A stretch of DNA of 64,000 bases from a virus (IMGVR_UViG_3300036770_008729:31359-95358); one strand, 5' to 3'. Positions 11,805 through 62,801 are shown, numbered from the stretch's first letter. Numbers and translations: made by a program. Notes: generated by a model not told the origin, from the letters alone.

Positions 11805-11815
11805 ATTAATAATAA

Positions 11816-13845: not shown

Positions 13846-13855
13846 TATAAGAAAT

Positions 13856-14620: not shown

Positions 14621-14624
14621 TTAT

Positions 14625-14981: not shown

Positions 14982-14982
14982 T

Positions 14983-15336
14983 ATGGAAAATAAAATCACA
15001 AAAATAGAAAAACCTTGGGGTTGGGAAAAATGGATAGAAGTGAATGAACACTATGTAGTGAAGGAACTTTTTATGAAAAGTGGCAATTGTTGTAGTCTTC
15101 AGTATCATGAAAAAAAACACGAAACATTTTATGTTGTAAGTGGAAGAATGAAGTTTTATGTTGGGGAAAAAATAGAAAATTTAAATGAGTTCATTTTAGA
15201 ACCTGGTCAAAATTATGTCATTAAACCATTTATAATCCATAGAATGGAGGCGGTAGATGATTGTATTTATATTGAATGTTCAACAAATTTTCTTGATGAT
15301 GTTATAAGATTAGAAGATAAATATGGTAGAAAATAA
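14983..15336 (+). CDS. cupin-domain protein (sugar isomerase/epimerase-like)
   Basis: 117 aa. KPWGWEKW ... HRMEA fits a cupin_2 pattern. Confidence 0.4.
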   Translation: MENKITKIEKPWGWEKWIEVNEHYVVKELFMKSGNCCSLQYHEKKHETFYVVSGRMKFYVGEKIENLNEFILEPGQNYVIKPFIIHRMEAVDDCIYIECSTNFLDDVIRLEDKYGRK

Positions 15337-17880: not shown

Positions 17881-17888
17881 ATTTAATA

Positions 17889-18788: not shown

Positions 18789-18789
18789 T

Positions 18790-19389
18790 CTATATTCTCT
18801 GAATAATAGTAGGTAAAGCCCCAAGCTCCAATACTTTACTTTTATTAAGTAAAAATTCAATATCATAAAAATTGAAATGAAATGTCATTGTGAAATCTTT
18901 ACTTTGAATCTTTTGTTGAGAATAGTTAAAAGTATTATCTGATAAAGACTTCAAAATTATTTCATAGAATCTGATAACATATATAGCATCTCTATGAATA
19001 TCCACACAAGTTATTGTAAATGGATTCAACCATTGATTCTCAACATCTAAATAATGTTTAGTGATTATATCAAACATCAACCAATAATTTAAATCCGAGT
19101 CAACTGACCTGAATGTAATAGTCAAATCTCTTGTTGTTGTAATATCCTGAACATTCTTTGCTGGTTTGAAGTTTCTTTCCTTACCTCTCATTGTTATCTG
19201 TCTTGGTAGATCAAAACTAATACCAGTAAAATTTACAGATTTTATAGTTGAATTTAGATAATCAATAATATTCTCATATTGAATCCAGTTCTTTTCTAAG
19301 ATTGGTGTATATGTATTTATGATTTCTGTTGGAGCAAAATCTGATGGTAAGTTAAAAACAAATTGACTGCCTTGACTGGATAATCTCAT
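18790..19389 (-). CDS. hypothetical protein, possible virion/baseplate component
   Basis: ORF downstream of the Gly-rich 669-aa protein and in the same operon. No motif. Confidence 0.3.
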   Translation of the reverse strand: MRLSSQGSQFVFNLPSDFAPTEIINTYTPILEKNWIQYENIIDYLNSTIKSVNFTGISFDLPRQITMRGKERNFKPAKNVQDITTTRDLTITFRSVDSDLNYWLMFDIITKHYLDVENQWLNPFTITCVDIHRDAIYVIRFYEIILKSLSDNTFNYSQQKIQSKDFTMTFHFNFYDIEFLLNKSKVLELGALPTIIQRI

Positions 19390-27568: not shown

Positions 27569-28102
27569 TTAAATACTTAATTCAACCTTTTCTCCAGATG
27601 GGGGTGAGAAAGAAACACTTTTCAAGTTATTAAACTTATATTTATCGTCTAAATTTATATAATTTTTACCAGTACCTTTATTTACATAGCAAATTGTTAT
27701 GTGTGGTTTGTAATCGGGATAAGATTCTTCATTCGGTAGTGTTTTTAACATATCATGTAGCTTCTGTAAATCAGGAGTTTTCTTAACATTAAACTTAACT
27801 ACATCATAATCTTTATTCTCGAATAAATCTATACCTTCAATTTCTATGTTTAGTGGTTTTGCAAATGAGGTCAAAATCTCTTGAACTTGTTCTGATGTTA
27901 CTTCTGGTTTTAATCCATATAATAAAGTCAAATGTGGAAAATCTTCTATACCCTGATTTTCCTCTGGATTATAAATATCTTCTTTTTTTATTTTAGAAGT
28001 TATTTCATCCCAATTTGTGAAAGGAATCTTTAACATCGCACAACCAAATTCGTGCTGACCTGATGATTCTTTAATAAACTGTATATAACTTTTTATCCTC
28101 AT
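27569..28102 (-). CDS. CTS-motif 2H phosphoesterase (LigT/2',3'-cyclic phosphodiesterase-like)
   Basis: Start set at the internal Met, MRIKSYIQFIKE|S, as an ATGA overlap with the upstream gene. Two H-x-T-x motifs (FPHLTLLYGL and KPHITICYV) about 85 aa apart. Confidence 0.55.
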   Translation of the reverse strand: MRIKSYIQFIKESSGQHEFGCAMLKIPFTNWDEITSKIKKEDIYNPEENQGIEDFPHLTLLYGLKPEVTSEQVQEILTSFAKPLNIEIEGIDLFENKDYDVVKFNVKKTPDLQKLHDMLKTLPNEESYPDYKPHITICYVNKGTGKNYINLDDKYKFNNLKSVSFSPPSGEKVELSI

Positions 28103-28638
28103 ACTGCTCCTTGTATTATTATTCTCCACTCACCACCTTTATTATTATAAGAAAATTTAAAATAAACTCCTATTTCAGATTGTATTCTTTTTACTGCTAC
28201 TAAAAAGTCATCAAATTCCTGTGTAATCTTTTTTCTTCTTTTATCTTGTTCGGCCATTTCTAACTCAGCCTCTTTTTTAGTCATTACATCTATCGATGGA
28301 TTATCTTCAAATTCCATTTCTTGAGAGTCCCAAGTTATTTCACCATCTGATGATATTCTACCAGTCATATCTACAAATTCTGTTCTTGCTCCTGATGTGA
28401 TATAAACATCTTCCTTTGGCATCATTCTACAATTAAAATTAGGAAATCCCCAAATAGAAATTGACATATCATCACCAGACCAATCGGTTCTATTTTCAAT
28501 CCAACTCCATCCATTATCTTCAAATTCTATGAAACATTCTTTAATTGTATCCAATACCTGCTGATACACTTTACGCATGTGAATTGCATATGGATGAGTT
28601 TCTTCAGTATTTTCATTAAATCTTTTTAAATGTTTCAT
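28099..28638 (-). CDS. CTS-motif family protein
   Basis: N-terminus MKHLKRFNE. Confidence 0.5.
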   Translation of the reverse strand: MKHLKRFNENTEETHPYAIHMRKVYQQVLDTIKECFIEFEDNGWSWIENRTDWSGDDMSISIWGFPNFNCRMMPKEDVYITSGARTEFVDMTGRISSDGEITWDSQEMEFEDNPSIDVMTKKEAELEMAEQDKRRKKITQEFDDFLVAVKRIQSEIGVYFKFSYNNKGGEWRIIIQGAV

Positions 28639-30290: not shown

Positions 30291-30320
30291 ATAAAAAAAC
30301 CATCTATAAAGATGGTTCTT
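30290..30320 (-). terminator. rho-independent terminator
   Basis: Plus strand reads aaaaaaaccatctataaagatggtt. On the minus strand this is a hairpin (aaccatct/agatggtt) followed by a T-run. It overlaps the methyltransferase stop codon. Confidence 0.5.
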
Positions 30321-31041
30321 CTAGTCTAAGATTAGCTAACTCACAATACTCTTTAGTAATGTCAAATCCGACATACCTTCTGCCTAACTTATTGGCGACT
30401 GATGTAGTTGTTCCACTGCCATTAAATGGATCAACCACAACTCCGCCAATGTAAGAGTGCATCTTAATACATCTTTTAGCCAACTCTTCCGGAAAGGGAG
30501 CTGGGTGTTTTCTTTTCTTAGCACTTTCTGGTGCGATTACCCAAAGACCATTTGTCCAGTTAATGAACTCTTCTTTAGTTAAGTCGGTTTGACCTTTCTC
30601 AACTATCTTTGGAGAACCTTTATGAAAATTAATAATCATCTCAAAGGGTGGAAGAATTCTTGGATTGCTTGGACTCATCCAACTACCCCAGGCAGTTCTT
30701 TTAGGAATCTGATTTTTATTCCAAATAATAAACTCTCTAAAAGTAAATCCAGCTTCTTGAAATAACCTTGTGAATGTTGAGTAACTTGGTTCATTCAATT
30801 GAGATTGAAAGCAACCAATTTGTAGGCAAAATCTACCACCATCTTTTAATACACGGAAGCTTTCGGAAATCCAAACTTTACACCATTCATAATAAGCCTC
30901 TAACTTCATAGAGTCATCATGGTCTTGATAACTGATATTAAGATTGTATGGTGGTGAAGTAAAGATTAAATCAACAGAATTATTTTCCATTGATTTGAAA
31001 CCTGAGATGCAATCCTGATTGTATATTTTATTAAATTCCAT
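30304..31041 (-). CDS. DNA methyltransferase (beta-class N4-cytosine or N6-adenine)
   Basis: N-terminal catalytic motif IFTSPPYN (SPPY). C-terminal VVDPFNGSGTT is the SAM-binding FxGxG motif. This permuted beta-class order suggests an orphan methyltransferase with no adjacent restriction enzyme. Confidence 0.75.
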   Translation of the reverse strand: MEFNKIYNQDCISGFKSMENNSVDLIFTSPPYNLNISYQDHDDSMKLEAYYEWCKVWISESFRVLKDGGRFCLQIGCFQSQLNEPSYSTFTRLFQEAGFTFREFIIWNKNQIPKRTAWGSWMSPSNPRILPPFEMIINFHKGSPKIVEKGQTDLTKEEFINWTNGLWVIAPESAKKRKHPAPFPEELAKRCIKMHSYIGGVVVDPFNGSGTTTSVANKLGRRYVGFDITKEYCELANLRLEEPSL

Positions 31042-34911: not shown

Positions 34912-37900
34912 TCAATTTATTTTGTTAACAATTTTGTTTATAACCTTAATATATTCTAAATCTATAATCTTTATTAGGTAAATTCCAGTCTTAGATTCTC
35001 CTAAATCTTGTTTTATTTTAGTAATACCTTGACTAACACTTTGCTTTTTTTGACTTATAAGTTTACCACTAATATCATAAACTTCTATCATAAGCTGTGT
35101 TTGATTTTTAGTAATATATTCTACAACAAACTCATTTTGTGTTGGATTAGGATATACTTTTGCATCCACTTCATCTAATTTAATTTGTGAAGTCTTAACA
35201 ATCAAACTATCATTATTAGGATTTGCTTGTCTTTGTGTTATACAACCAGCTTGTATTACTAAAGTTCTCCAAGTACTAGTTCCACAATTAGTTACTGATC
35301 GAACTGATAAAGTTCCTCCATTGAATCCCGATGAGAATGTAACATCGATTATTCTACTAATGGAAGAACCAGTAGTTCCATTTGGTAACATCCATTGATA
35401 ACTTGTTGCGCCATTTACTGCTACAATACTGTAAGTGGATGTTGCTCCTATGTTACCACATGTTGGTCCTGAGATTGCTCCGGGCACTGGTGGTGTTTTA
35501 CTTATTGATAATGTTCTTGCTGTACTTCTAACACCACAAGCGTTTTGTGCTTGAACTTGTATAGTACCTCCAGTAAATTGTGGACTAAACTGTACTAATA
35601 CATTTCTAGTACCTTGACCTTGAACTATTGTGGCGTTGGATGGTGCTGTCCAAAAATATGAAGTCGCTCCTGATACTGTACTGCTTGAATACAATACATT
35701 ACTTGATGTTTGATCTACATTAGTATAAGCAGAACAAACATTTGTTGTACCTGTAATTCTAGTTGGTGTTGCAGGTGCATTAGTACCCGAACTTGTGACA
35801 GTTAAGGTACTTGGTGATCCAGTACCACAACTATTGATTGATGCCACTGTTATGTTCCCACTTACAAATGAACTTGTAATAGTGACTTGGATAGTATTAG
35901 TACCTTGACCATTGTTTAATGTAATACCATTTGGTACTGTCCAAGAATAACCAATAGTGGCGTCATACATTGGTGATATTGAGTATGAAGTAGTTGTAGC
36001 ACAAGTACTTGTTGGACCACTAATCGGACCTGGTATTCCAGGTAAAGAGTTGATTGTGATAGTAGATGAAGCTGATGATATACAATTGCCTGTTGATGCA
36101 GTGTATGTCATTGTACTTGTATTTTTAGCATAAACTGTATTTCTAATATCACCAGTATAAGATTGTGTTGCTGTTGGATTTATATATAATCCAGTTAATG
36201 GTGACCAGGTTACCATTGTTGGAGCATATATACCAAACTTCATGTTTGGACGATACTTACTACTTATAAGATTGTTTGCTTCATTAAGTGGTTCACAAAC
36301 TGAAAAGTCATTATCATAACCTCCATAAACTGAGTTAAATGAAGTTTGACTAAACTCTACTGCTGAGTTTGTACCAGTACAGTTGCTACAAGAATTGTTT
36401 ACATCATTGTCGTGACAGATCTCTATTACAATATTGTAAAGTGGATTCCATGTAAATGATTGATTAAAAGAATATACTTTCCATCCAACTGTAGGTGCTT
36501 GTTCTTGTCCAGTAGTGTAAACAGTTACAAAAGGACCTACGGTAACACTTAAAAGACTACCACTTTCTGTAATATAACCATAAGATAAGTTGTCATTTAT
36601 GGTGTGAGCTATTTTAATTGTAAAGTTATTTTGGTAACCAGTACCTTGTGATAGTACTTTTAATGCTAATGAATTTATATCACCAGCAACTAAACCAAGT
36701 GCAAGTAATTCTGATGATCTAATTAGATATTGCACTCTTGAACCTTCATAGCTACTTGTATAAGGTGTAATACCTGATTGACCAGTAAGAGTTGTATTGA
36801 CTCCTAATTGACGACTGAATGTAGCTGATCCTCCTGTTGCTGTTAATGTTGTAATTGAATTACTACAAGCAGTTGTTATTGAAGGTGTAACTGATAAAGC
36901 AGATGGTGTTGGGTTTATTTGTATGTCTACAGATGAAGAAGAACTACAACCATCTAAAGTCGATGTTAAAGTATATGTTCCTTCATTATTGTATGTAGCG
37001 TTATTAATAGTTGGTGACTGTTGTGATGATGTATAGTTATTTGGTCCAACCCAACTAAATGTATTACCAATATCAGAACTTCCAATTAAACTTATAGTTG
37101 AATTTTGACATACAGAACTATTGTTTGTACTAGCATCTGTTAAAGGTATAGCTTTTATAGTCACACTAACTGGTATATTTGATGAACCACATTCTGAGGT
37201 AATAGTTAGTGAGTAGTTACCAGCATCAGCATTTGTAGTATTGTCAATTAAGAGTGATGGTGTTTCAGCACTTGGATTGATTGATGGATCAATTACTATA
37301 CTATTTTTATACCATTGGTATTGCACTTGACTACCAGTTGCTACAACTGTTAAATCTATTGGATCATTAAAACAAACAGATGATATTGTTGATGGTTGTG
37401 AAACAATTTGTAAAGTAGGTATTCCAGTTATATTAATAACATCACTAACACTACAACTTCTGTAAGTTGAAGTTAAAGTATAACTATTTAATCCTACTAA
37501 AGCAGATGGTATAGTTGCATTTAAAGTACTTGCTGAAAAACTAGGACCTGTCCAACTGATTGTTGGTGCTACTGTATTTAAAGTAATGGTAATGCTCCAG
37601 TCATTAAATGTACCTATATCACCAGTATAGTCATCAGTAATACGAAGTGTCCAAACACCATCAGCACTTCCAGTTAAGTTAGAAAAAGGTTGCTCAGGTG
37701 TGTATGTTCCTGTGAATGGAGCTGTACCTGATGTTATAGCGGTACCTGAAGTAGAGAATACTGTGTTAACATAGTTGTCACCAGTACTTCCATTATCACT
37801 TGATAAATCTATTGAAGAACCATTTGGAGCAATTAAAGTTAAATCTAAGTCCGCATCAAATGGATGTGTTATGTTTAGTAATACTGAGGTTATTTGATTA

Positions 37901-39411
37901 GCATTAGCACCAGTTCCACTAACAGTAATAGTTCTGTCTATACTTGAAACATCAGGTATTAATAATGAGGATGTATTTGAACCACTAAATGATGGATTCA
38001 TATTTGGTGAAACTCCATCTAAGTTGATTTCACTACTCTGACAAATACTAAAGTCTGTTCCGGCTTCAGCAGTTGGATAAACATTGTTTATGTTGACAGC
38101 TACATCATATACAATATTACCAGGACCAGCTCCATTTGTATTAGTACTAAATTCAAACTGCGATTCTTTAATAACATCAAACGATAAACTATTACTACCA
38201 GTTGTTGTAGGAGCAGTTACTGAAAAAGTATATGTGGTAGTTGATCCAGCAGCTAAGTTGTTAGCATCTATTTTTTGATAACTTGCTTGGTCATTCCATT
38301 TAACACCTATATTATAGTCATCTCCACCTCCATCAATCCAAGAAACAGTACCAGTATTTTTAACAGTTACAGTTATCTGACGAGTTTCTCCTGCACACCA
38401 CCAAGAGTTGCCTGTATTAGAACTTATCCAAGTTGCAAGATATGGTGTAGGTGGAGGTGTCCAAGTATAAGTTAATCCTGAGGCTGGTTTAACTGTGTTT
38501 GATAATCTTACAGTAGCACTATTAGTCCCACCTGCTGTAGTACTTGACCAACTAGTTGTAGTTGTACGATTTGCAAAATCAGCATTAGAATTTCCTCTTA
38601 ATCCAATTTCAAAACCAACTGCTGTAGTGTTTGTAGGTCCAAGTATGCTGTAGACAAAATCTATCGTATTTGTTGTCTCGTTTAATCTAATTTGAAAATC
38701 ATACAATTCACCAAAACCACCATTTGTAGTATATCTTTGAAATCCAGTCCATTGAACTACTAATGTTTGATTTGGAGCAGTTCCAATTGTTTCATAACGA
38801 ATACCAAATTTTGGATTTGAAAATCTGAAATGAAAACCAGTACCTTTTGAAGTTGCTGCGGATGATATTGTAACTGTGTTTGTTCCTATAGCAGTTACAG
38901 TTGCATTGTTTGGTATACCAGATCCTGATACCTTATCACCGATAGATATTTGACTAATATCACCACTTGTTATTGTGATTGTAGTACTACCACTTGTTCT
39001 ATTTGCTAAAAAAGAACCTCTACCAATTAAGTCTCCTCCCATAGCAGATATTACGTTGTTGGAGGTTCCCAAAGATAATGGGGACATACTGTTTATTGGT
39101 AAAGTACCTAATGAAATCCAACCATTAGTACTGATACCAAACTGAGTGTAGATTGTATTGTTATAAACAAAATTAAACCCAATTGGTAGTAACGCTGATG
39201 AGACGTTATCGTCTAAAAATCCTGCTGTAGTATTTGGTAATGTTCCAGTATATACACTGTTTGTCCAATTAGTAAAGTTGTTGTAATTGGTTCCTCCTGT
39301 AATTTCAGTATATGTTCCTGATGAGGATGAAAAGGTATAATTATTTACTTGTGATAATAAGTTGAATGAAATTAGAGTAAGAAGAAGGGTTAGTAATTTT
39401 TTCATGGTCAA
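34912..39411 (-). CDS. giant secreted multi-domain protein with T9SS C-terminal sorting domain and a proprotein-convertase P-domain
   Basis: N-terminal signal peptide MTMKKLLTLLLTLISFNLLSQ. Ser/Thr-rich Ig/PKD-like repeats. The P-domain-like block is HPFDADLDLTLIAPNGSSIDL...GVWTLRITDDYTGDIGTFNDWSITI. The C-terminus KVYPNPTQNEFVVEY...GIYLIKI is typical of Bacteroidota Por/T9SS CTDs. Confidence 0.75.
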   Translation of the reverse strand: MTMKKLLTLLLTLISFNLLSQVNNYTFSSSSGTYTEITGGTNYNNFTNWTNSVYTGTLPNTTAGFLDDNVSSALLPIGFNFVYNNTIYTQFGISTNGWISLGTLPINSMSPLSLGTSNNVISAMGGDLIGRGSFLANRTSGSTTITITSGDISQISIGDKVSGSGIPNNATVTAIGTNTVTISSAATSKGTGFHFRFSNPKFGIRYETIGTAPNQTLVVQWTGFQRYTTNGGFGELYDFQIRLNETTNTIDFVYSILGPTNTTAVGFEIGLRGNSNADFANRTTTTSWSSTTAGGTNSATVRLSNTVKPASGLTYTWTPPPTPYLATWISSNTGNSWWCAGETRQITVTVKNTGTVSWIDGGGDDYNIGVKWNDQASYQKIDANNLAAGSTTTYTFSVTAPTTTGSNSLSFDVIKESQFEFSTNTNGAGPGNIVYDVAVNINNVYPTAEAGTDFSICQSSEINLDGVSPNMNPSFSGSNTSSLLIPDVSSIDRTITVSGTGANANQITSVLLNITHPFDADLDLTLIAPNGSSIDLSSDNGSTGDNYVNTVFSTSGTAITSGTAPFTGTYTPEQPFSNLTGSADGVWTLRITDDYTGDIGTFNDWSITITLNTVAPTISWTGPSFSASTLNATIPSALVGLNSYTLTSTYRSCSVSDVINITGIPTLQIVSQPSTISSVCFNDPIDLTVVATGSQVQYQWYKNSIVIDPSINPSAETPSLLIDNTTNADAGNYSLTITSECGSSNIPVSVTIKAIPLTDASTNNSSVCQNSTISLIGSSDIGNTFSWVGPNNYTSSQQSPTINNATYNNEGTYTLTSTLDGCSSSSSVDIQINPTPSALSVTPSITTACSNSITTLTATGGSATFSRQLGVNTTLTGQSGITPYTSSYEGSRVQYLIRSSELLALGLVAGDINSLALKVLSQGTGYQNNFTIKIAHTINDNLSYGYITESGSLLSVTVGPFVTVYTTGQEQAPTVGWKVYSFNQSFTWNPLYNIVIEICHDNDVNNSCSNCTGTNSAVEFSQTSFNSVYGGYDNDFSVCEPLNEANNLISSKYRPNMKFGIYAPTMVTWSPLTGLYINPTATQSYTGDIRNTVYAKNTSTMTYTASTGNCISSASSTITINSLPGIPGPISGPTSTCATTTSYSISPMYDATIGYSWTVPNGITLNNGQGTNTIQVTITSSFVSGNITVASINSCGTGSPSTLTVTSSGTNAPATPTRITGTTNVCSAYTNVDQTSSNVLYSSSTVSGATSYFWTAPSNATIVQGQGTRNVLVQFSPQFTGGTIQVQAQNACGVRSTARTLSISKTPPVPGAISGPTCGNIGATSTYSIVAVNGATSYQWMLPNGTTGSSISRIIDVTFSSGFNGGTLSVRSVTNCGTSTWRTLVIQAGCITQRQANPNNDSLIVKTSQIKLDEVDAKVYPNPTQNEFVVEYITKNQTQLMIEVYDISGKLISQKKQSVSQGITKIKQDLGESKTGIYLIKIIDLEYIKVINKIVNKIN

Positions 39412-43767: not shown

Positions 43768-44460
43768 TTATTTTATATATGAGCTATCTATTTCAAATCC
43801 TATAAAATTTCGATTTAATTCTTTTGCTTTGCTTGCTGTGGTTCCACTTCCCATAAATGGATCTAAAACTAAATCATCTTCTTCAGTTGTTAATTTGATA
43901 CAAAGTTCTGGTATAAGTGGATGAAAAGGTGCGGGATGACCGGATTGTTTGATTGGTGGAATATCCCAAACTTCACTCTTGAATTCTTTAGGTAGATTAT
44001 CTTTGAATACTTTAGGCTTTTCTTTTACTAGCCAGAAGATATATTCGGTGGTTGGTGTCAATATATCTTTTCTGATATTTGGTGAGTTTTTTCTATTCCA
44101 AATTATTATTTGATATAGTTTGAAATTGGTATCTCTAACTAGTTCATATGGATTGTAAGCGATATTTTTGTTTCTTCTAACTTTATGATTGTAGAACATT
44201 GAACCATCTGGCTTTAGTATTCTATGACATTCGTTTAAAATTTCTTTTTGCCAATTAGTATAATCTTCCTCATTCATATCATCACCATAAGTTGAGTAAT
44301 CGATATTAAATTTAGACCAGATTTGATTTCCTATTTTCTTTTTACCACTTAGTCCTTTTTTGTTATAAGGTGGTGATGTGATGATAGTATTAATTGAATT
44401 ATCTGAAATATTTTTCATTCCAGATAAACAATCTAAATTATGAATTTTATTAATTTCCAA
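43768..44460 (-). CDS. DNA methyltransferase (beta-class, SPPY)
   Basis: TIITSPPYNKK catalytic motif and LDPFMGSGTT SAM motif. Confidence 0.7.
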   Translation of the reverse strand: MEINKIHNLDCLSGMKNISDNSINTIITSPPYNKKGLSGKKKIGNQIWSKFNIDYSTYGDDMNEEDYTNWQKEILNECHRILKPDGSMFYNHKVRRNKNIAYNPYELVRDTNFKLYQIIIWNRKNSPNIRKDILTPTTEYIFWLVKEKPKVFKDNLPKEFKSEVWDIPPIKQSGHPAPFHPLIPELCIKLTTEEDDLVLDPFMGSGTTASKAKELNRNFIGFEIDSSYIK

Positions 44461-45537
44461 TTAAGCATTAAAGTTTTTAGAATTTTTCAATTTCTCTAAA
44501 ATTGATTTTTCTTCTAAATTAATACTTTTAGGTATAGAAATTGAAATCTTTACAAATAAGTCACCAAGTCCTAAATTGATATCGGGAACTCCTTTACCTG
44601 TTAGTCTTATTACTTTGCCGTGATGTGTTCCTGGTTCTATTGTTATTGAAACTTCTCCATGTGGAGTTTTAACTTTTAGGTTTGCTCCAATGATGGCATC
44701 AATAACTGAGATATTCTTTTCAACAATTATATTATTCTGTTCTCTGGTAAAATAAAATTCTCTAATTTCTTCAACTACAATTTGTAAATTACCTGGAACA
44801 CCATCTTTTATATGATTTCCATACCCGGTCATATTAAGTTGCATTCCATTAGAAACTCCAATTGGAATTTCTACTTCTATTGTTTCTTCTCTTAATTGTG
44901 TACCGTCACCATAACATTGACCACATTTATTTTTGACTTGTTTGCCGGCACCGCCACAATCAGGACAAGTTGTAGTTTGTCTTATTTGACCAAATGGTGT
45001 ATTTTGAACAACTGTTCTATTTCCCGATCCACCACAAGGTAAACAATCTCTAGTATCAGTTCCACCCTTTCCATTACAAGAGTTACAACTGTATTGTCTT
45101 TTATATTTTAATTTCTTCTTACAACCTTTAATAATTTCATCAATTGTAAGTGAGACTTTTATTCTTAAATCGGCACCTCTTGCTTGAGGTCTTTGTTGAT
45201 AGTTTCTATTCCTATTTCCGAAACCACCACCGAATATGTCTCCAAATTGACTGAAGATATCATCCATGTTAAATCCATGTCCTTGTCCGCCAAATGGATT
45301 ACCTCCTCCAAATGGATTACCATCAGCTGTTCCAAATCTGTCATAATTAGCTCTTTTTTGAGAGTCTGACAAAACATCATATGCTTCGGCTGCTTCTTTA
45401 AATTTAGATTCTGCATCAGGATTTCCTGGATTTCGGTCAGGATGGTATTGCATAGCCATCTTACGGTAGGCTTTCTTTATTTCATCTTCTGATGAACCTT
45501 TGTTAACTCCTAATATATTGTAGTAATCTTTACTCAT
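44461..45537 (-). CDS. dnaJ: DnaJ (Hsp40) co-chaperone
   Basis: J-domain DYYNILGV...YHPDRN. G/F-rich linker. Four CxxCxGxG zinc-finger repeats. C-terminal domain. Confidence 0.85.
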
Positions 45538-45874: not shown

Positions 45875-46374
45875 TTTACTATCTTAGTAATTTTTTTATC
45901 TCTTATTTCTTCCAATATATTTTGAGATTCTATACATTTTCTAATTGATTTAGCAACATAGTTATCTACAATTAGTGTTAGAGTTTCAAGAGTTCTATCT
46001 AACTCATCGAAATGAAATAATGATGTTTTAACCTTTGGTATCATAATCAATAGGTAATCTATGAATTCATCAATATCAAAAGATAATCGATATAATTCTT
46101 TTTGATAATCTGTTAATATCTCTGGAGTTTCAATGAAAAACTTTGCCCAAACTCTTCTAATAGAAGGTAAAATTAAATCTAAAAAATCATCATCACTTTC
46201 ATAGAATGAACCCTGGAATATATCATCTTCGAATAGATGCAGTTTCTTATCTAAGACATAGTTTAATATATTCTTTAGTGATTCGGAGTTTCTTACACCT
46301 GAACAAACTGAATCTATAACAATTAATCTATATTGTTCATCATCTCTGATGGCGAAGATGTTAGCGTGTTTCAT
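45871..46374 (-). CDS. hypothetical protein
   Basis: 167-aa ORF with ATGA coupling. Confidence 0.3.
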   Translation of the reverse strand: MKHANIFAIRDDEQYRLIVIDSVCSGVRNSESLKNILNYVLDKKLHLFEDDIFQGSFYESDDDFLDLILPSIRRVWAKFFIETPEILTDYQKELYRLSFDIDEFIDYLLIMIPKVKTSLFHFDELDRTLETLTLIVDNYVAKSIRKCIESQNILEEIRDKKITKIVK

Positions 46375-46847
46375 TTACCTAAAATGATTTTCGGATATCT
46401 AAATGGTTTTCCATTTAATGAATAACCTTTACCTACTACATCAATGATTTTAGATTCACCAACTTCCATAACAGAAATTACTTCATGTAAATCCTCATCA
46501 TATGTTTCTGTTTGAATTTCTTCAATACCTTGACTTTTTAAGAAACTTTGTAGTTTTGTAGATATAAGGTCTAGACCTTTTTTTGCTTCATCATTTTTAA
46601 CTGACTTTATTGCGAAAGTTAAATCGTTATCCATATCTAAAAGTGAAGTAAGCATTTTAACTTTTGTATTAGATACAAGTTCTTCTTTTTCTTTAACAAC
46701 TCTTCTTTTATAATTGTCAAAATCAGCATAAAGAAGAAGATATTTTTTCTCAGATTCGGATAATTTTTGTTCTAATTCTTTATGTTTTTCTAATAATTCA
46801 TCAAAAGGAGTTACGACTTTCTCCGTGTTTTCAGTATTTTCTTCCAT
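46371..46847 (-). CDS. grpE: GrpE-like nucleotide exchange factor
   Basis: LYADFDNYKRRVVKE matches GrpE LRxxAEFxNYRKR. C-terminal NGKPFRYPKIILGK matches the GrpE beta-sheet tail G.vLRPA.V.V. It is short at 158 aa. Confidence 0.7.
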   Translation of the reverse strand: MEENTENTEKVVTPFDELLEKHKELEQKLSESEKKYLLLYADFDNYKRRVVKEKEELVSNTKVKMLTSLLDMDNDLTFAIKSVKNDEAKKGLDLISTKLQSFLKSQGIEEIQTETYDEDLHEVISVMEVGESKIIDVVGKGYSLNGKPFRYPKIILGK

Positions 46848-51049: not shown

Positions 51050-52915
51050 ATGAGTAAAATTATTGGTATAGACTTAGGGAGTTACAACTCCGCAGTATCA
51101 GTTTACGAAGGAACTGAAGTAAAAATCATTCCTAATTCCGAGGGTGGATTAACCACTCCTTCTTATGTAGCATTTACAAAAGATGGTATTAAAGTTGGTG
51201 AACCTGCTAAAAGACAAGCAGCCGTTAATCCAGAAAAAACAATTTTTAACATTAAGCGTTTAATGGGTAAAACTTGGGAACAAGTTAAAGACCTTAAAAG
51301 ACCTTATAAAATTGTTAATTCTAATGGAAGACCTGGAGTTAAGATTGATGATAAGACCTATTCACCCGAAGAAATCTCAGCGATGATTATTCAGAAAATG
51401 AAAAAAACTGCTGAAGACTTTTTAGGACACGAAGTTAAAAAGGCTATCATTACAGTTCCTGCTCACTTTAATTCAGAAGAAAGACAAGCAACTAAACTTG
51501 CTGGTGAAATTGCTGGTCTTGAAGTAGAGCGTGTAATTGCCGAACCAACAGCTGCTATTTTGAATGTTGATTCAAAATCAGAAAAGAAGTATGCAGTTTA
51601 TGACTTTGGTGGATGTACAATGGACTTGTCTATTGTAGATGTAGCTGATGGGGTGTTTGAAATTCTATCGACAGATGGTGATTTGGATTTAGGTGGTTCT
51701 TTGATTGATGAGAAAATCGTTAATTGGATAGCTGATGAATTCCAAAAGTCAGAGGGTCAAGATTTAAGAAAAGATCCTATGGCTCATCAAAGATTGTTTG
51801 AGGCGGCTGAAAAAGCAAAGATTGAATTATCCGGTTCGCAGACCGCGGAAATCAATTTGCCTTACATTACATCTATCGATGGAGTTCCTAAACACTTAGT
51901 AAACTCCTTATCTAGATCAAAGTTTGAGCAATTGATTGATGATATCGTTGAAAGAACAATTGACAAAGCAAAATCTGCACTTAAATCCTCTGGATTAAAA
52001 GTTGGTCAGATTGATGAAGTTTTGTTAGTTGGTGGTTCATCAAGAATTCCTTTAGCTCAAGATAAGTTAGAAAAACTTTTTGGTAAGAAACCATCTAAGT
52101 CACTTAACCCTGACACTTGTGTATCAACTGGTGCTACAATTCAAGGTGGTGTTATTACAGGTAATGTAACAGATGTTTTATTACTTGATGTTCTTCCTAT
52201 CTCATTAGGTATTGAAACAATGGGTGGAGTTCTTACTAAATTAGTTGAAGCTAACACAACGATTCCGACTCGTAAATCGGAAACATTCTCAACGGCGTCT
52301 GATAATCAACCATCAGTAGAAATTAATGTTATACAAGGTGAGCGTCCAATGGCTAAAGATAATAAGTCATTAGGAAGATTTCACTTAGATGGTATTATGC
52401 CAGCACCTCGTGGAGTTCCTCAAGTAGAAGTAACTTTTGATATCTCAGCTGATGGTATTCTTTCAGTATCAGCGAGAGATAAGGCTACCGGTAAAGAGAA
52501 TAAGATTCGAATTGAAGGTAGTTCTAAACTTTCTAAAGAGGAAATCGAAAGAATGAAGGCAGAAGCTGAAGCTAACGCTGAGGTTGACCGCCTTGAAAAA
52601 GAAAAGGTTGAAAAGCTGAATATGGCTGATAGTATGATTTTCCAAACAGAAAAACAGATTAAGGAATTTTCAGACAAATTATCTGATGAAGATAAGAACT
52701 CTATCAACACTGATCTTGCAGCTCTTAAAGAAGTCCATTCTAGTAAAGAAATTGAAAAGATTGACGAAGCTATTAAGAAGCTAAATGAAACTTGGACTGC
52801 TATAAGCACTAAAATGTATCAAGCAACTCAAGAACAACCACAACCGGAGTCAAATCCTAACTCTGGTGATGGAGGAGATAATGTCCAAGATACAACTTTC
52901 GAAGAGGTTAAGTAA
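51050..52915 (+). CDS. dnaK: Hsp70 chaperone DnaK (divergent)
   Basis: [83 protein letters not shown] and C-terminal lid. These are canonical Hsp70 blocks with unusual substitutions (GCTMD for GGTFD). Confidence 0.85.
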
Positions 52916-56840: not shown

Positions 56841-57141
56841 AATCACTTTTCCATTTTTGAAAAAAAGAAAAATCTATATATACCAACAAAATCAAATTAA
56901 TACTATGCCTTTGCCATATTTCTCTTTTCTTCCTATGTATAATAGGATTAGAATGAAAAAAATTAGAACAATATTCAATATCAATATGGATAATAGACTG
57001 GAGGAAAAATCTTCTGACAGTAAACTTAAAATGAGTACAAGTTTGTTTAGAAACTGAGAGTAGAAAAAAGAAAAATGTATATATACCTTATAGAACTTAT
57101 TTATTTTAACTAAATATAAAATCAAAAAATAGCCTTAAAAC

Positions 57142-59064
57142 ATGAGCTTATTATCCACCATCAAAAAGAACTTTTCACAATCTGAAAAAGATATCTCAAT
57201 CGAAGAGTATCTAAAACTATGTAAATCAGATAAAAAAACTTATCTTTCTCCTGCTGAACGAATGCTTGACGCTATCGGTGAAGCTGAACTAATCGAAACT
57301 AAATTAGACGAAAGATTAAGTAGAATATACTCAAATAGAGTAATAAAAAGATATCCAGCATTTTCTGAATTCTTTGGAATGGAAGATACAATCGAACAAA
57401 TTGTTTCTTTCTTTAAACATGCCGCACAAGGTTTAGAAGAAAAGAAACAAATTCTTTATCTTTTAGGACCTGTTGGTGGTGGTAAATCATCATTGGCTGA
57501 AAGATTAAAACAATTAATGGAAAAAAGTCACATCTATGTTTTAGTTGCGAATGACGAGGTTTCTCCTGTTTGGGAAAACCCACTTGGTTTATTTTCATCA
57601 TATAGAGAACAATTAGAAGAAGAATATGGAATTCCTAAAAGATATGTTCCGTCTTGTCCTTCACCGTGGGCTACTAAAAGATTAGCTGAGTTTGATGGTG
57701 ATATCACTAAATTCAAAGTTAGAAAACTTAAAATGTCTATTGCTTCTCAAATTGGTATTTCCAAAGTTGAACCAGGTGACGAAAATAATCAAGATATCTC
57801 TTCATTAGTAGGTAAAGTTGATATTAGAAAATTAGCCGAGTTCCCACAAAATGATGCTGACGCTTATTCATATTCAGGAGCACTCTGTAAATCTAATCAG
57901 GGTTTAATGGAATTTGTTGAGATGTTTAAGGCACCGATAAAATTATTACATCCGCTATTAACAGCAACACAAGAAGGAAATTTTAATGGCACTGAAAATT
58001 TACCAGCTATTCCTTTTCAGGGTATTTTATTAGCTCACTCTAATGAAAGTGAATGGGAAACTTTCTCAAATGATAAGAAGAATGAGGCTTTCTTAGATCG
58101 TGTTTATATTGTGAGAGTTCCTTATTGTTTAAGAGTTGATGAAGAAGTTCAGATTTATCAAAAACTCTTAAAACATTCTTCTCTTTCAGGTTCGTCTTGT
58201 GCTCCTCAAACATTAGATTTGCTTGCTGAATTCTGTGTTATGACTAGACTTAAAAATCCAGAAAACTCTCTACTATATTCTAAAATGAGAGTCTATAATG
58301 GTGAAAACTTAAAAGAGTCTGATCCAAAAGCTAAATCTTTACAAGAATATAAAGATGATGCCGGTATCACAGAAGGTATGTCTGGTATTTCAACTCGTTT
58401 TGCGTTCAAAGTTCTCTCTAAGGTATTCAATCACGATTCAGAAGAAGTGGCTGCTAATCCTGTTCATCTGTTTTATGTATTAGAGCATGAAATAATTAAA
58501 GCTCAAATGACTAAGGAAGTAGAAGATTATTACTTAAATATCTTAAAATCAACTTTAACTAGTAAATACGCTGAGTTTATCGGTGATGAAATACAAAAAG
58601 CTTATGTTGATTCTTATCAAGAATATGGTCAAAATCTATTTGAGAGATACATCACTTATGCTGACCACTGGTGCCAAGATAATGATTTCAGAGATCCTGA
58701 AACCGGACAACAATTTGATAGAGCTGCACTTAATGAAGAATTAGAAAAAATTGAAAAACCAGCTGGTATTGCTAATCCAAAAGATTTTAGAAATGATTTA
58801 GTTCAATTTTATCTAAGACACAAAGCTAAAAATGGTAAATCACCATCTTGGGACTCTTATGAGAAAATTAAGAATGTTATTGAAAAAAGAATCTTCTCTA
58901 AAACAGAAGACCTTATTCCTGTTATTTCTTTCACATCTAAGGCATCCAAAGATGAACAAAAGAAACATTCTGAATTTGTTAATAGAATGAAAGATAGAGG
59001 TTACACTAATAAACAGATTAAATTACTCACTGACTGGTATTTAAGAATTAGGAAGTCAAATTAA
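57142..59064 (+). CDS. prkA: PrkA-family AAA+ serine protein kinase (YeaG-like)
   Basis: LLGPVGGGKSSL Walker A. Size of 640 aa and architecture fit PrkA/YeaG. Confidence 0.8.
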   Translation: MSLLSTIKKNFSQSEKDISIEEYLKLCKSDKKTYLSPAERMLDAIGEAELIETKLDERLSRIYSNRVIKRYPAFSEFFGMEDTIEQIVSFFKHAAQGLEEKKQILYLLGPVGGGKSSLAERLKQLMEKSHIYVLVANDEVSPVWENPLGLFSSYREQLEEEYGIPKRYVPSCPSPWATKRLAEFDGDITKFKVRKLKMSIASQIGISKVEPGDENNQDISSLVGKVDIRKLAEFPQNDADAYSYSGALCKSNQGLMEFVEMFKAPIKLLHPLLTATQEGNFNGTENLPAIPFQGILLAHSNESEWETFSNDKKNEAFLDRVYIVRVPYCLRVDEEVQIYQKLLKHSSLSGSSCAPQTLDLLAEFCVMTRLKNPENSLLYSKMRVYNGENLKESDPKAKSLQEYKDDAGITEGMSGISTRFAFKVLSKVFNHDSEEVAANPVHLFYVLEHEIIKAQMTKEVEDYYLNILKSTLTSKYAEFIGDEIQKAYVDSYQEYGQNLFERYITYADHWCQDNDFRDPETGQQFDRAALNEELEKIEKPAGIANPKDFRNDLVQFYLRHKAKNGKSPSWDSYEKIKNVIEKRIFSKTEDLIPVISFTSKASKDEQKKHSEFVNRMKDRGYTNKQIKLLTDWYLRIRKSN

Positions 59065-59081
59065 AAAATAGACCCAATTTT

Positions 59082-60344
59082 ATGTCTATTAATATTGTAG
59101 ATAGGAGAAAAAATCCTAAGGGTAAATCCTCTGAAAACCGTCAGAGATTCCTTAAACGGATTGAAGGTCAAATAAAAAAGGCCCTGCCTGATATTGTAAA
59201 AAATACTAATGTAAAGGATATCACTGGTACCGGTGAGAAAATTAAAGTTCCTGTAAAAGGAATTGGTGAGCCTCAGTTCTCTTATGATAGAGAATCTGGT
59301 AATAAAAAATATATTCACCCCGGGAATAAAGAATATGTTGAAGGTGATAAAATTAAAAAACCAGATGGTGGTGAAGGCAGAGGAAATGGAAGACAGGGCT
59401 CAAACGATCCAACCGTAACAGAAGATGAATTTACAGTTACAATTAGTAGAGAAGAATTTTTAGATTATTTCTTTCAAGATTTGGAACTTCCAGATATGGT
59501 GAAAAAACATCTTAATTCTATTGTAGATTGGAAAAGAAAAAGAGCAGGTTACTCTTCTTATGGAAATCCAAGTAGATTAAATATCACAAGATCTTATAAA
59601 AACTCTATGGCTAGGAGAATGGCTGTTGGTATGTTCTTTGATAAGAAAATAAAAGAAATTGAAGATAAACTTAAACTCAATCCACCAGATGATGAGAGAT
59701 TAAAATTAGAAACAGAATTAGATAAACTTAAAAAAATGAAACTATCTGTCTCATTTATGGAAGAGGTAGATCTTCAATATAACAACTTTGAGAAATATCC
59801 AGTTCCAGTAACATCAGCAGTAATGTTTTGTATTATGGATATATCTGGTTCAATGGGTGAAAAAGAAAAAGATATCTCTAAACGATTTTTTATGCTTCTT
59901 TATATGTTCCTAACTAAACAATATGAGAGGATTGAAATTGTTTTTATCAGACACCACACAGAAGCAAAAGAAGTTGATGAACAAGAATTCTTCAACTCAA
60001 AGGAAAGTGGTGGTACTGTGGTTCTTCCAGCTCTCGAATTAATGAAAAAGATAATTGATGAGAGATATGCACAAAATTGGAATATCTATGCGGCACAAGC
60101 TTCTGATGGTGATGTTTGGAATAAATCAGATGCTGATAATTGTTATAAGATATTAGATGTTGATTTATTGAATAGAGTTCAATATATGGTTTATATTGAG
60201 GTTTGTAGGAGAAATGATGGAGATTTGTGGGGAAATTATAATTTGTTGGCGCAAAAGAAAAAGAATTTTCAGATAGGGAAAATATCGGAAGTTAGTGAGA
60301 TATGGAAAGTGTTTCAAGACTTCTTCAAAAAGAAAGTTGCATAG
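59082..60344 (+). CDS. YeaH/YhbH-like DUF444 protein (vWA-like)
   Basis: MDISGSMGEKEKD is the vWA MIDAS DxSGS motif. 420 aa. Immediately downstream of prkA. Confidence 0.65.
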   Translation: MSINIVDRRKNPKGKSSENRQRFLKRIEGQIKKALPDIVKNTNVKDITGTGEKIKVPVKGIGEPQFSYDRESGNKKYIHPGNKEYVEGDKIKKPDGGEGRGNGRQGSNDPTVTEDEFTVTISREEFLDYFFQDLELPDMVKKHLNSIVDWKRKRAGYSSYGNPSRLNITRSYKNSMARRMAVGMFFDKKIKEIEDKLKLNPPDDERLKLETELDKLKKMKLSVSFMEEVDLQYNNFEKYPVPVTSAVMFCIMDISGSMGEKEKDISKRFFMLLYMFLTKQYERIEIVFIRHHTEAKEVDEQEFFNSKESGGTVVLPALELMKKIIDERYAQNWNIYAAQASDGDVWNKSDADNCYKILDVDLLNRVQYMVYIEVCRRNDGDLWGNYNLLAQKKKNFQIGKISEVSEIWKVFQDFFKKKVA

Positions 60345-60345
60345 A

Positions 60346-61842
60346 ATGAAAAAATCAGAGATAAAAAAACTTCTTAGTAAATCCGATTGGAATGAACATA
60401 CAATAAGAGTGTTTATTGAAATAATTGATAGAATATCAAAAGAACACCTTAATTTAGATGTTTATCCTAATCAATTTGAGATTGTTTCATCTGAGCAACT
60501 TCTTGATGCTTACGCCTCAATAGGACTCCCTATTTCATATAACCATTGGAAGTATGGAAAAGATTTTGTTATAAATCAAAATCAATATAAAAAGGGTAGA
60601 ATGGGTCTTTCTTATGAAATGGTAATTAATTCTAATCCATGTATCTCCTATAACTTAGAAGATAATGATACTTGTTTAATGACTTTGGTTTATGCACATG
60701 TACAGGGACACAATCATTTCTTTAAGAACAATTACCTTTTCAAGCAATGGACTCAGGCAGATTCAATTATTGATTATATGTTATTTGCTAGAAACTTTAT
60801 TTCCAAATGTGAAGAGAAATATGGATATGAAGAAGTTGAAATGGTATTAGATTCTTGCCACGCTCTTATGAACTATGGTGTTGATAAATATAAAAAACCA
60901 AAAAAATTAACACCCAAAGAAGAAGCTGAAAGATTAAAGAAGAAATTAGAAGATGATAGAGTTTTAGTGGATGATATTTGGAGAACACTTCCAAAAGAAG
61001 AAGAAAAGAAAAAGAAGAAAATCAAATTCCCAGAACAACCTGAGGAAAACATTCTTTATTTTATCCAGAAAAACTCACCTATACTTAAAGAGTGGCAAAG
61101 AGAAATAATTAGAATTGTAAGAAAAACCGCACAATATTTTTATCCACAAGGTCAAACCAAAGTTATTAACGAAGGAACGGCGACTTTTACTCATGTTGAA
61201 ATCATCAATAAAATGTATGAAGAAGGTTATTTAGATGATGGATTTATGCAAGAATTTCTACACCATCATTCTAATGTTGTATATCAACCAGGATTTGATT
61301 CTAAATACTATTCTGGACTTAATCCTTATACTTTGGGTTATAATATCTTTAAGGATATAAAAAGAATGTCTATTGATCCAACGATTGAAGATTTGCATTG
61401 GTTTCCGGATATTGCTGGAAAGGGAAATTGGAAAGAAGTATTTCTTTATGCGGTTGAGAACTTTAAGGATGAAACTTTTATTTTACAATATTTGTCTCCA
61501 AGAGTGATGAGAGATATGAAATTGTTTGAGATAACGGATTATGAGGAAGCGCCAAACTATGAAGTATCTTCAATTCATAATGAAAAGGGATATAAAAGAA
61601 TAAGACAAACTTTATCTGAATTTTACAATCGTAATAGATATGTTCCAGATATACAGGTTTATAATGTTGATATAACTGGTAATAGAGGATTAACTTTGGA
61701 ATATACACCTAATGATGCAAAAGAGTTGGATGTAAAAGAGGTTGATAAGGTGTTGCCTCATATTAAGTTTCTATGGGGATTTCCGGTAAAGATAATTAAG
61801 AAGTCTTATGGAAAAATTCATACAATTTCTACAACGGATTAG
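60346..61842 (+). CDS. SpoVR/YcgB-family protein
   Basis: Size and position as the third gene of the yeaG-yeaH-ycgB triad. Start set at the ATG right after the YeaH stop. Confidence 0.6.
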   Translation: MKKSEIKKLLSKSDWNEHTIRVFIEIIDRISKEHLNLDVYPNQFEIVSSEQLLDAYASIGLPISYNHWKYGKDFVINQNQYKKGRMGLSYEMVINSNPCISYNLEDNDTCLMTLVYAHVQGHNHFFKNNYLFKQWTQADSIIDYMLFARNFISKCEEKYGYEEVEMVLDSCHALMNYGVDKYKKPKKLTPKEEAERLKKKLEDDRVLVDDIWRTLPKEEEKKKKKIKFPEQPEENILYFIQKNSPILKEWQREIIRIVRKTAQYFYPQGQTKVINEGTATFTHVEIINKMYEEGYLDDGFMQEFLHHHSNVVYQPGFDSKYYSGLNPYTLGYNIFKDIKRMSIDPTIEDLHWFPDIAGKGNWKEVFLYAVENFKDETFILQYLSPRVMRDMKLFEITDYEEAPNYEVSSIHNEKGYKRIRQTLSEFYNRNRYVPDIQVYNVDITGNRGLTLEYTPNDAKELDVKEVDKVLPHIKFLWGFPVKIIKKSYGKIHTISTTD

Positions 61843-61874: not shown

Positions 61875-62801
61875 ATGGGTAATATAGGTTATTGTTGCAT
61901 AAACCTTTCAATAAATGAAGGTAGAAAAAAGAAAGACCACATCTCTGTTAATAGAGGTATGACTAAAAAAACATTTGAGACAAAAGGTCTTTCTTATGTC
62001 TCTGAACTAGCTATACAAAATATTAATGACTTACAAAAGATATTAGAATGGAATGTTAAGAATAAGATATTTGTTTATAGAATGTCTAGTGATATGTTTC
62101 CATGTATAGGATTTTATAAACTAGAAAACCTTCCTCGTTTCGCAGCAATTTCTCAAAAATTGAAAGCAATTGGTGATTACGCTAAAATTAATTCTATCCG
62201 ACTTTCTTTTCACCCAACTCATTTCTGTATTCCCGCTAGTGAGAATCCAATAGTTGTAACAAATGCAATTGATGAATTAGATAAACATGCTCAAATAATG
62301 GATATTATGGGTTTAGAACAAACACACTTCTATCCTATAAACATACATGTAAATACTACTAAACCGACCAGAGAAGAAGCAGCTGATAGATTTTGCAAAC
62401 AGTTTTGGAATTTAAGCGAGTCTTGTAGAAAGAGATTAGTAGTAGAAAATGATGATGGTCCTAACCAGTATTCTACAAAGATGTTATATGATTTAATTTA
62501 TACAAAAATTGGAGTTCCCATAACTCATGACTTTCATCACCATAACTATGGACCACAAGATATTTCACAGGAAGAAGCACTTAAACTTGCCCATTCTACT
62601 TGGAATGGCATTAAACCAATGACTCATATGAGTTCTCCAAAAACATTAGAAGATAATTCAGGAAAACAAACAGCACATGCAGATTACATATATGAAGAAA
62701 TTAAAACTTATGGTCTTGACTTTGATACAGAAATTGAGGCAAAAGCCAAAGACCTTGCGGTATTCAGATACAGAAAACAATTTCAGATACTCAAAGGGTG
62801 A
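61875..62801 (+). CDS. uvdE: UV-damage endonuclease (UvdE/Uve1 family)
   Basis: N-terminus MGNIGYCCINLSIN resembles the UvdE start lGyvCi.l. TIM-barrel size of 308 aa. Confidence 0.65.
   Translation: MGNIGYCCINLSINEGRKKKDHISVNRGMTKKTFETKGLSYVSELAIQNINDLQKILEWNVKNKIFVYRMSSDMFPCIGFYKLENLPRFAAISQKLKAIGDYAKINSIRLSFHPTHFCIPASENPIVVTNAIDELDKHAQIMDIMGLEQTHFYPINIHVNTTKPTREEAADRFCKQFWNLSESCRKRLVVENDDGPNQYSTKMLYDLIYTKIGVPITHDFHHHNYGPQDISQEEALKLAHSTWNGIKPMTHMSSPKTLEDNSGKQTAHADYIYEEIKTYGLDFDTEIEAKAKDLAVFRYRKQFQILKG

Follow-up and report, generated by a model that had tools for sequence, protein, structure and literature searches.

The 64,000-nucleotide viral stretch IMGVR_UViG_3300036770_008729:31359-95358, in the following referred to as the window, carries a complete set of three consecutive plus-strand genes (57142-61842) for PrkA/YeaG, the DUF444 protein YeaH and SpoVR/YcgB, and it is well supported that this triad is a long-term resident of a phage lineage and not recent host DNA. 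With slightly more confidence than doubt, we explain it as a whole by a single capture of the module, followed by vertical inheritance, and by its expression from the phage genome to override the starvation or growth-arrest programme of the host. A first-pass annotation made from the sequence alone had proposed such a long-resident triad, and both its completeness and its long residence are borne out by the evidence given below. The locus comprises the following features:

57142..59064, plus strand: prkA/yeaG orthologue, 640 amino acids, with an AAA+ ATPase domain and a PrkA C-terminal (kinase-like) domain
57466..57492, plus strand: Walker A motif (P-loop) GPVGGGKSS, residues 109-117 of PrkA, identical in E. 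coli YeaG and in the Cytophagales and Pseudomonas orthologues
59082..60344, plus strand: yeaH orthologue, 420 amino acids, a DUF444 protein with a vWA-type MIDAS motif
59838..59855, plus strand: DISGSM, residues 253-258 of YeaH, which forms the DxSxS MIDAS of the vWA domain and falls in the conserved core of the aligned DUF444 proteins
60346..61842, plus strand: spoVR/ycgB orthologue, 498 amino acids, with an alternative, probably unused GTG upstream at 60295
61168..61194, plus strand: NEGTATFTH, residues 275-283, the most conserved SpoVR motif, present in the window copy without an intein

All three proteins pass the cut-offs of the family models concerned. PrkA matches Pfam AAA_PrkA (PF08298; 5.7e-168, 559 bits, residues 19-376) and, in its C-terminal domain, PF06798 (8e-67, 226 bits, residues 379-629). 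YeaH matches PF04285 from residue 5 to residue 418 of its 420 residues (1.3e-147, 492.7 bits), and SpoVR matches PF04293 (7.3e-151, 503 bits) together with SpoVR_C (PF24755; 2.4e-17, 63 bits). The NCBIfam models used, which are equivalogs for the Gram-negative YeaG, YeaH and YcgB types, yield 1120 bits for PrkA (NF011999, cut-off 576), 535 bits for YeaH (NF003707, cut-off 396) and 708.5 bits for SpoVR (NF008737, cut-off 679). Identity to the E. coli proteins amounts to 65% (YeaG), 43% (YeaH) and 50% (YcgB). Among the positions which are invariant across 78 bacterial orthologues including those of E. coli, 263 of 275 are retained in PrkA, 86 of 92 in DUF444 and 130 of 141 in SpoVR (92-96%), and every substitution at these columns is conservative. 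The AAA+ blocks MEFVEMFK and AHSNE of PrkA are conserved, and the blocks near Walker A match E. coli YeaG exactly. The Walker A and DISGSM motifs quoted in the first-pass annotation are thus present, and a loss of the catalytic residues of PrkA, which it had named as a finding that would speak against it, is not observed. Its designation of PrkA as an AAA+ serine kinase is correct with respect to the PrkA family and the AAA+ domain, but “kinase” is an annotation label on which published biochemistry conflicts. PrkA is homologous to the solved chains 9xip, 9xiq and 9xir (E value 6.8e-55), for which no accompanying paper was found in the literature searched, and a solved relative of DUF444 was sought in the PDB without result. 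The AlphaFold2 model of SpoVR is poor (mean predicted local distance difference test score of 53.8 with a 51-sequence alignment), since the alignment is limited to close relatives of 71-91% identity. Judged by sequence, the three genes would encode functional orthologues of bacterial YeaG/PrkA, YeaH and YcgB/SpoVR, which forms part of the explanation we favour.

The genes lie on the same strand in the order prkA-yeaH-spoVR and are separated by 17 nt (prkA stop to yeaH) and by 1 nt (yeaH stop to the ATG of spoVR), an operon-like arrangement in agreement with the tight spacing claimed earlier. Mechanical prediction places the start of the SpoVR open reading frame (ORF) at GTG 60295, which leads to a 50-nt overlap with DUF444. 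The real start is probably ATG 60346, giving 498 amino acids and leaving the overall span unchanged, since this codon is situated one base past the DUF444 stop, is in accordance with the homologue alignments and has been called, as a 498-residue protein, on identical public contigs. The order prkA-yeaH-spoVR is common to nearly all of the approximately 160 bacterial and viral loci examined. In six bacteria the triad genes show cofitness of r > 0.7, from which a common pathway has been proposed, with phenotypes differing between species (Price et al.). The huge phage LR756502 (642 kb; L165/L167) contains adjacent prkA and DUF444 genes at 273.8-277.1 kb and spoVR about 245 kb away (at about 520 kb), a layout which resembles the split found in E. 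coli and still keeps the three genes. Because of the conserved order, the cofitness and the retention of all three genes in LR756502 despite the split, we regard the triad as one unit.

The setting of this unit appears to be the genome of a huge phage. Among 50,697 phage records, the best matches of PrkA belong to three huge phages which are uncultured and measure 634-642 kb. Over about 49 kb (12.7-61.8 kb), 32 ORFs of the window are collinear with positions 436.8-484.9 kb of LR745206.1 at 26-86% amino acid identity, and in this 634-kb genome the triad occupies the same slot. LR745206 and LR756502 are complete genomes of huge phages, sampled in the subsurface of Japan and in a lake in France, and have been placed by terminase (TerL) phylogeny (PMC9723777). 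Furthermore, the block DnaK-orf413-(amidase)-orf172-orf204-PrkA-DUF444-SpoVR-UvdE is found again on about ten IMG/VR contigs which are independent and come from different samples, the exact PrkA protein of the window is present on five public contigs, two of which belong to the 0.2-1 Mb class, and identical sequence is found in separate JGI and Logan assemblies. Since LR745206 and about ten IMG/VR contigs share this neighbourhood, a chimeric join with host DNA, by which the first-pass annotation could have been overturned, is excluded. The contigs of the triad clade are classed as viral in IMG/VR. With respect to the “T4-like genes” among which the triad had been described to reside, a gp32-like single-stranded DNA-binding protein (PF08804, 3.2e-16) and an RNA ligase resembling T4 RnlA (phrog_562, 2.3e-51) are present, but nothing else of T4 type was found, and T4 capsid, tail and baseplate families were not detected in the window; the label thus holds only loosely. 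Most ORFs of the window are without a family match, and no tRNA was found within it. The window genome appears to be a relative of the huge phages (“megaphages”), the neighbours of the triad being mostly cellular-type genes or ORFans.

The bacterial counterparts were searched for in one representative genome per species of 185,579 species. No bacterial PrkA exceeds 69% identity to that of the window, the top matches coming from Cytophagales (Bacteroidota) and Gammaproteobacteria. The best bacterial identities of PrkA, DUF444 and SpoVR (69%, 57% and 62%, respectively) are all found in Cytophagales, which range from 52% to 57% in DUF444 and from 56% to 62% in SpoVR, compared to 42-47% and 48-54% in Gammaproteobacteria. 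About 15 viral contigs together with LR745206 and LR756502 show identities to the window of 83-90%, 66-82% and 69-79% in the same three proteins. Trees were calculated by neighbour-joining with 200 bootstraps, from the three genes concatenated and from every gene alone, with the bacteria sampled as the 80 genomes whose PrkA is most similar. All 200 bootstraps recover the phage clade as monophyletic, in the concatenate as in every single gene, and 188-200 of 200 unite it with Cytophagales, to which a small second group of viruses is added. Since the single-gene trees give the same phage clade and the same grouping with Cytophagales, the genes of the triad share one history. This phylogeny against Bacteroidota and phage homologues is the check that had been suggested for the residence of the module, and its outcome agrees with the claim.

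Composition points in the same direction. The GC content of the triad genes (0.30-0.32) and their GC content at third codon positions (GC3; 0.19-0.23) are near those of the 62 other genes of the window (0.288 ± 0.026 and 0.182 ± 0.033, respectively), as stated by the first-pass annotation, whereas the nearest bacterial orthologues have a GC3 of 0.46-0.85. One clade member, L010 (IMGVR_UViG_3300005662_007764), which has the same flanks and an 88% identical PrkA, shows 46-47% GC in comparison with 27-34% in the other members. GC3 of its PrkA has risen to 0.63, hence the triad tracks the composition of the genome it resides in. Relative to seven clade members, nonsynonymous divergence (dN) is 0.07-0.13 for PrkA, 0.14-0.15 for DUF444 and 0.15-0.19 for SpoVR, while synonymous divergence (dS) among clade members exceeds 1 in the triad, i.e. 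synonymous sites are saturated. For the flanking phage genes dN amounts to 0.12-0.52, so the triad is the more tightly constrained, and strong purifying selection acts on it in the phage clade. A search of metagenomes with SpoVR yields at least 120 distinct clusters at the 90% identity level which are 72-91% identical to the window protein, above any bacterial sequence, and several of them reside on contigs of 150-642 kb. The long residence of the triad follows from the monophyly of the clade, bacterial identities of at most 69%, 57% and 62%, the ameliorated codon composition and a dN far below dS.

No fewer than four phage lineages that are distant from one another contain complete triads, namely the LR745206 clade, the Ralstonia jumbo phage RsoM2USA, the Thermus phages and LR756511. 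In RsoM2USA, ORF30-29-28 make up a full triad, ordered as in the window and 57%, 40% and 51% identical to it; this low identity together with a separate deep branch in the trees suggests a separate acquisition. The genome paper on RsoM2USA names PrkA and SpoVR under separate functional categories and recognises neither the middle gene nor the unit. Thermus phage phiYS40 contains DUF444, SpoVR, a 616-residue gene and PrkA, in this order, and its record already annotates “SpoVR” and “serine kinase”. The interposed gene 058 (L002:4112-5962) has no Pfam match and is absent from the cluster of Thermus phage MN1 (77 kb; DUF444-SpoVR-PrkA); its product could act as an additional, fourth partner specific to this lineage. 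The huge phage LR756511 (595 kb) harbours PrkA-DUF444-SpoVR in a very divergent form (26-31% identical to the window). The very different sequence types of the complete triads in these at least four lineages argue that the unit has been captured repeatedly and as a whole. Phage copies of the triad are already contained in public records, and the novelty is therefore smaller than the first-pass annotation implied. PHROGs v4 comprises families for all three proteins, each labelled “unknown function”. In a marine virome study, spoVR is the most abundant “sporulation auxiliary metabolic gene” and is taken as a sign of sporulation control (PMC8940887), a reading which, given the triad context, is probably wrong for non-sporulating hosts. 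In the literature searched, we found no description of a phage-borne triad as a three-gene unit nor of the triads of LR745206 and LR756502, whose records are unannotated, and the supplementary tables on the marine megaphage Mar_Mega_1 do not mention the triad families. New here are the conservation throughout the clade, the evidence for repeated capture by phages and inteins in SpoVR.

Further records were assessed and set apart. IMG/VR contigs at 61-71% identity (groups B and C) are not counted as viral evidence, their flanks giving few PHROG matches of unknown function. On some “viral” IMG/VR contigs of 200-320 kb whose status is uncertain, with a 63% identical PrkA and a GC content of about 0.35, a full-length elongation factor G follows the triad (L054:12540-14639, L046:11958-14027). 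The record of Enterobacter phage LAU1 (L174, MN688132.1 1-3308), lambda-like and 30.8 kb in length, contains yeaG-yeaH at its extreme start by tail fibre genes; these are probably host flank carried along with the prophage and not phage genes.

Two relatives carry an intein in SpoVR. The 869-residue SpoVR of P0055 contains a full LAGLIDADG intein within the NEG|xATFxH motif, and that of LR756504 (L166:15516-17423) contains a mini-intein of about 124 residues at the same site. Both interrupt the protein exactly between NEG and (C)ATFxH and exhibit the signature Cys-1 ... His-Asn / Cys+1. To our knowledge, SpoVR has not been recognised as an intein host before. Judging by its position within the most conserved motif, the insertion site probably marks the functional centre of SpoVR. 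Insertions also occur between the genes in members of the clade: a GIY-YIG/NUMOD homing endonuclease (L017:5603-6448) or, on the opposite strand, a 496-residue ORF without a family (L006:10290-11780, minus strand) is located between DUF444 and SpoVR. In LR756504 the triad has extra genes between its members, among them, between DUF444 and SpoVR, members of the DNA methylase family also present in the window (L166:13564-15248).

Upstream of prkA, two features are observed:

57094..57120, plus strand: promoter-like element AACTTA, 15-nt spacer, TATAAA, which ends 21 nt 5' of the prkA ATG, with an A-rich leader following it
56861-56884 and 57064-57087, no strand assigned: two copies of the 24-nt direct repeat AAAAAAGAAAAATnTATATATACC, which bracket an extra segment of about 203 bp

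In eight of nine aligned upstream regions of the clade, AACTTA-N15-17-(TG)TATAAW occurs at the same position, 20-50 nt before the start codon, and we regard it as the putative promoter of the operon. Elsewhere, AACTTA-N-TATAAW is weakly enriched (5 occurrences versus 2.0 expected in the window, 6 versus 1.45 in L003), and owing to this weak enrichment a general phage promoter class was rejected. A generic sigma-70 scan is uninformative (29 promoter-like sites versus 40.9 in shuffled sequences), and a scan for terminators returned none on the plus strand. The spacer upstream of prkA measures 317 bp in the window compared to 91-166 bp in the relatives. The 24-nt repeat was sought in the upstream spacers of the relatives and is absent from them; as it is private to the window genome, a conserved regulatory site was rejected. 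The extra segment of about 203 bp is identical in the independent assemblies L170 and L171 and holds about 50 nt resembling the prkA-yeaH junction of the relatives.

The explanation we favour combines these observations as follows. An ancestor of the clade of huge phages related to LR745206 and LR756502 would have acquired the module in a single event, with all its genes, from a donor resembling Bacteroidota, and the clade would have passed it on vertically since. During infection, the phage may express it from its own upstream promoter-like element. By analogy with MoxR and its adaptors, the AAA+ ATPase PrkA may pair with the vWA/MIDAS protein YeaH as an ATP-driven remodeller, SpoVR would be the third partner, and the module would be self-contained. 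It might then impose or override the growth-arrest programme of the host so that a nutrient-limited cell sustains a long and costly infection. The reprogramming of the host's starvation response put forward in the first-pass annotation is likewise a plausible hypothesis. As background, E. coli YeaG is described as needed for adaptation to sustained nitrogen starvation (Figueira et al.), and the bacterial triad is reported to control the metabolic state of growth-arrested cells (PMC4664914). Regarding the host, the window encodes a 1,499-residue protein (34912-39411, minus strand) with PKD-like, proprotein-convertase P and Ig-like domains and a C-terminal Por_Secre_tail, the sorting signal of the type IX secretion system (T9SS), which points to a host from the Bacteroidota and to export by the T9SS of that host.

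Several points weigh against this explanation. What PrkA does biochemically is contested for the bacterial protein itself: published work describes a kinase for E. coli and, for B. subtilis, a Lon-like ATP-dependent protease which requires Walker A and in which the equivalent lysine, K108, is essential (PMC9512850), whereas neither kinase nor protease activity was detected for B. anthracis PrkA and the earlier protease signal was ascribed to a contaminant. “Starvation response” is a loose label, because the phenotypes of bacterial triad mutants vary by species. Sequence and profile searches of the PDB with SpoVR gave zero significant matches. The trees are neighbour-joining and not maximum likelihood trees, and the true donor lineage may be missed since the bacterial sample consists of the 80 genomes nearest in PrkA. 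That the phage infects Bacteroidota is probable and derives entirely from the T9SS-sorted protein and the phylogeny of the triad. Finally, no capsid, portal, terminase or tail gene is recognised within the 64 kb of the window.

A more far-reaching formulation must remain tentative and is, as a whole, rather doubtful. According to it, the triad is a portable, self-sufficient controller of growth arrest which has been captured whole at least four times by large, slowly replicating phages, has become a near-core module in the largest known phage lineage and keeps starving hosts productive.

We consider it unlikely that the triad has a phage-intrinsic role in proteostasis or assembly, for instance of a very large virion or a replication factory, beside the phage's own DnaK-DnaJ-GrpE and apart from any starvation signalling. 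AAA+/vWA pairs are typically remodelling machines, the triad is found mostly in large phages, and a complete chaperone set is encoded inside 11 kb 5' of the triad:

44461-45537, minus strand: DnaJ, part of the chaperone set
46371-46847, minus strand: GrpE, part of the chaperone set
51050-52915, plus strand: DnaK, syntenic with the triad across the clade

The proximity of these genes, however, may be coincidence, and since MN1, a phage of 77 kb, carries the triad as well, the latter is not tied to giant virions. The protease activity reported for B. subtilis PrkA would suit such a role but was not reproduced in the work on B. anthracis. The conserved positions are near-identical to those of bacterial orthologues acting in uninfected cells, which argues for the same targets or activity and against a novel substrate specific to the phage.

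Quite improbable in our view is a device for counter-defence or competition, by which the phage would seize the growth-arrest circuitry of the host in order to block dormancy-type abortive responses or to exclude rival phages. That the bacterial triad is reported to govern a growth-arrested metabolic state (PMC4664914) would fit this, as would further candidate genes for host takeover in the window, namely a pair of DNA methylases and a 2H-phosphoesterase whose similarity to Acb1 remains below threshold; the proposal is, however, purely inferential, and the searches run returned no literature tying the triad to phage defence. A reading of the triad as a defence system was rejected, since a PADLOC search covering the triad and four neighbours gave 0 families at E <= 0.01.

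It is very improbable that the window and the LR745206-like records represent a cellular or otherwise non-viral replicon on which the triad would simply be chromosomal. The lack of recognised structural and terminase genes in the window would agree with it, and so would its many genes of cellular type (DnaK/DnaJ/GrpE, glycosyltransferases, adenylate kinase, the T9SS-sorted protein). Against this, the complete genomes of LR745206 and LR756502 have been published as those of phages, with a terminase that served for phylogeny, the window contains the gp32-like protein, the T4-type RNA ligase and an endolysin-like amidase, most of its ORFs are without a family, no tRNA was found, IMG/VR classifies the contigs as viral, and relatives harbour free-standing homing endonucleases and inteins. 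Barely conceivable is, finally, host chromosome misjoined to phage DNA or a very recent, functionless passenger, for although the module is typically bacterial and the LAU1 record demonstrates that such contamination happens, the locus and its neighbourhood are present in LR745206, on about ten contigs and in separate JGI and Logan assemblies, and the identities to bacteria, the undivided bootstrap support, the phage-like GC3 and the low dN relative to dS all disagree with it.

Downstream, the triad is followed by one further gene on the same strand:

61875..62801, plus strand: uvdE (UV damage endonuclease; Pfam UvdE 8.1e-49, TIGR00629 163 bits)

It begins 32 nt 3' of spoVR, outside the triad, with which it is possibly co-transcribed. 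In most contigs of the clade uvdE is found 3' of spoVR (63-81% identity), LR745206 being without it at this site. Other genes of the window encode an adenylate kinase, a patatin-like lipase, a GMP-reductase-like protein, the endolysin-like amidase and a glycosyltransferase/epimerase cluster. The latter (1-18800, plus strand) comprises glycosyltransferase, nucleotidyl-transferase and NAD-dependent epimerase/dehydratase genes on the same strand and possibly constitutes a pathway for a polysaccharide or for glycosylation of DNA or virion; compared with about 32 kb of LR745206 upstream of the collinear block, its epimerase (12715-13845) is the sole match. Two paralogous N6/N4 DNA methylases are encoded on the minus strand (30304-31041 and 43768-44460). 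Also on the minus strand, a protein of the 2H-phosphoesterase / 2'-5' RNA ligase superfamily (27569-28129), the similarity of which to Acb1, a protein directed against the cyclic oligonucleotide-based antiphage signalling system (CBASS), stays below threshold (25 bits, cut-off 27), could be a counter-defence enzyme that degrades cyclic nucleotides.

In bacteria, YeaG/PrkA, YeaH and SpoVR are among the most widely conserved gene sets whose biochemistry is unsettled. That the triad has been kept for long under strong purifying selection in an abundant clade of huge phages implies a benefit in infection and a portable unit. It adds to the picture of a stress and proteostasis toolkit of huge phages, with DnaK, DnaJ and GrpE encoded nearby, and the triad context corrects the “sporulation” reading of viral spoVR matches. 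Should the triad indeed be a portable controller of growth arrest, the cultured carriers RsoM2USA, phiYS40 and MN1 would be tractable systems for the function of the module, and the active centre of SpoVR would lie at the intein site.

Among the known systems that come near, the triads of LR745206.1 and LR756502.1 (genomes of Al-Shayeb et al. 2020) belong to the same clade and show 86%, 76% and 73% amino acid identity to the window; LR745206 shares the genomic slot and the flanking genes and differs by the missing downstream uvdE. All three families are likewise adjacent in LR756511 and in the Thermus phages MN1 and phiYS40/TMA (the latter about 152 kb), which represent independent lineages at about 23-31% identity to the window, the Thermus phage order DUF444-SpoVR-(extra gene)-PrkA being unlike the prkA-yeaH-spoVR of the window. 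In MoxR-type AAA+/vWA-MIDAS systems such as RavA-ViaA and CbbQ-CbbO, the gene for an AAA+ ATPase adjoins that for a DxSxS vWA protein, as prkA adjoins yeaH. Such pairs are typically chaperone-like remodelling machines. The phage PrkA differs from the MoxR type in belonging to another AAA+ family, in its kinase-like C-terminal domain and in having SpoVR as a third, obligatory partner, for which reason we use the likeness as a working analogy and claim no membership. The bacterial YeaG-YeaH-YcgB module of Gram-negative species shares with the phage triad the three families, their order, their strand and their full length; it forms one operon in most species and is split into yeaGH and ycgB in E. 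coli. In contrast to it, the phage triad is borne by huge phages, forms a monophyletic clade of its own and exhibits an AT-rich, phage-like codon usage. Control in E. coli is described as dependent on sigma-S and NtrC, instead of which the phage triad is preceded by a putative, clade-specific promoter-like element.

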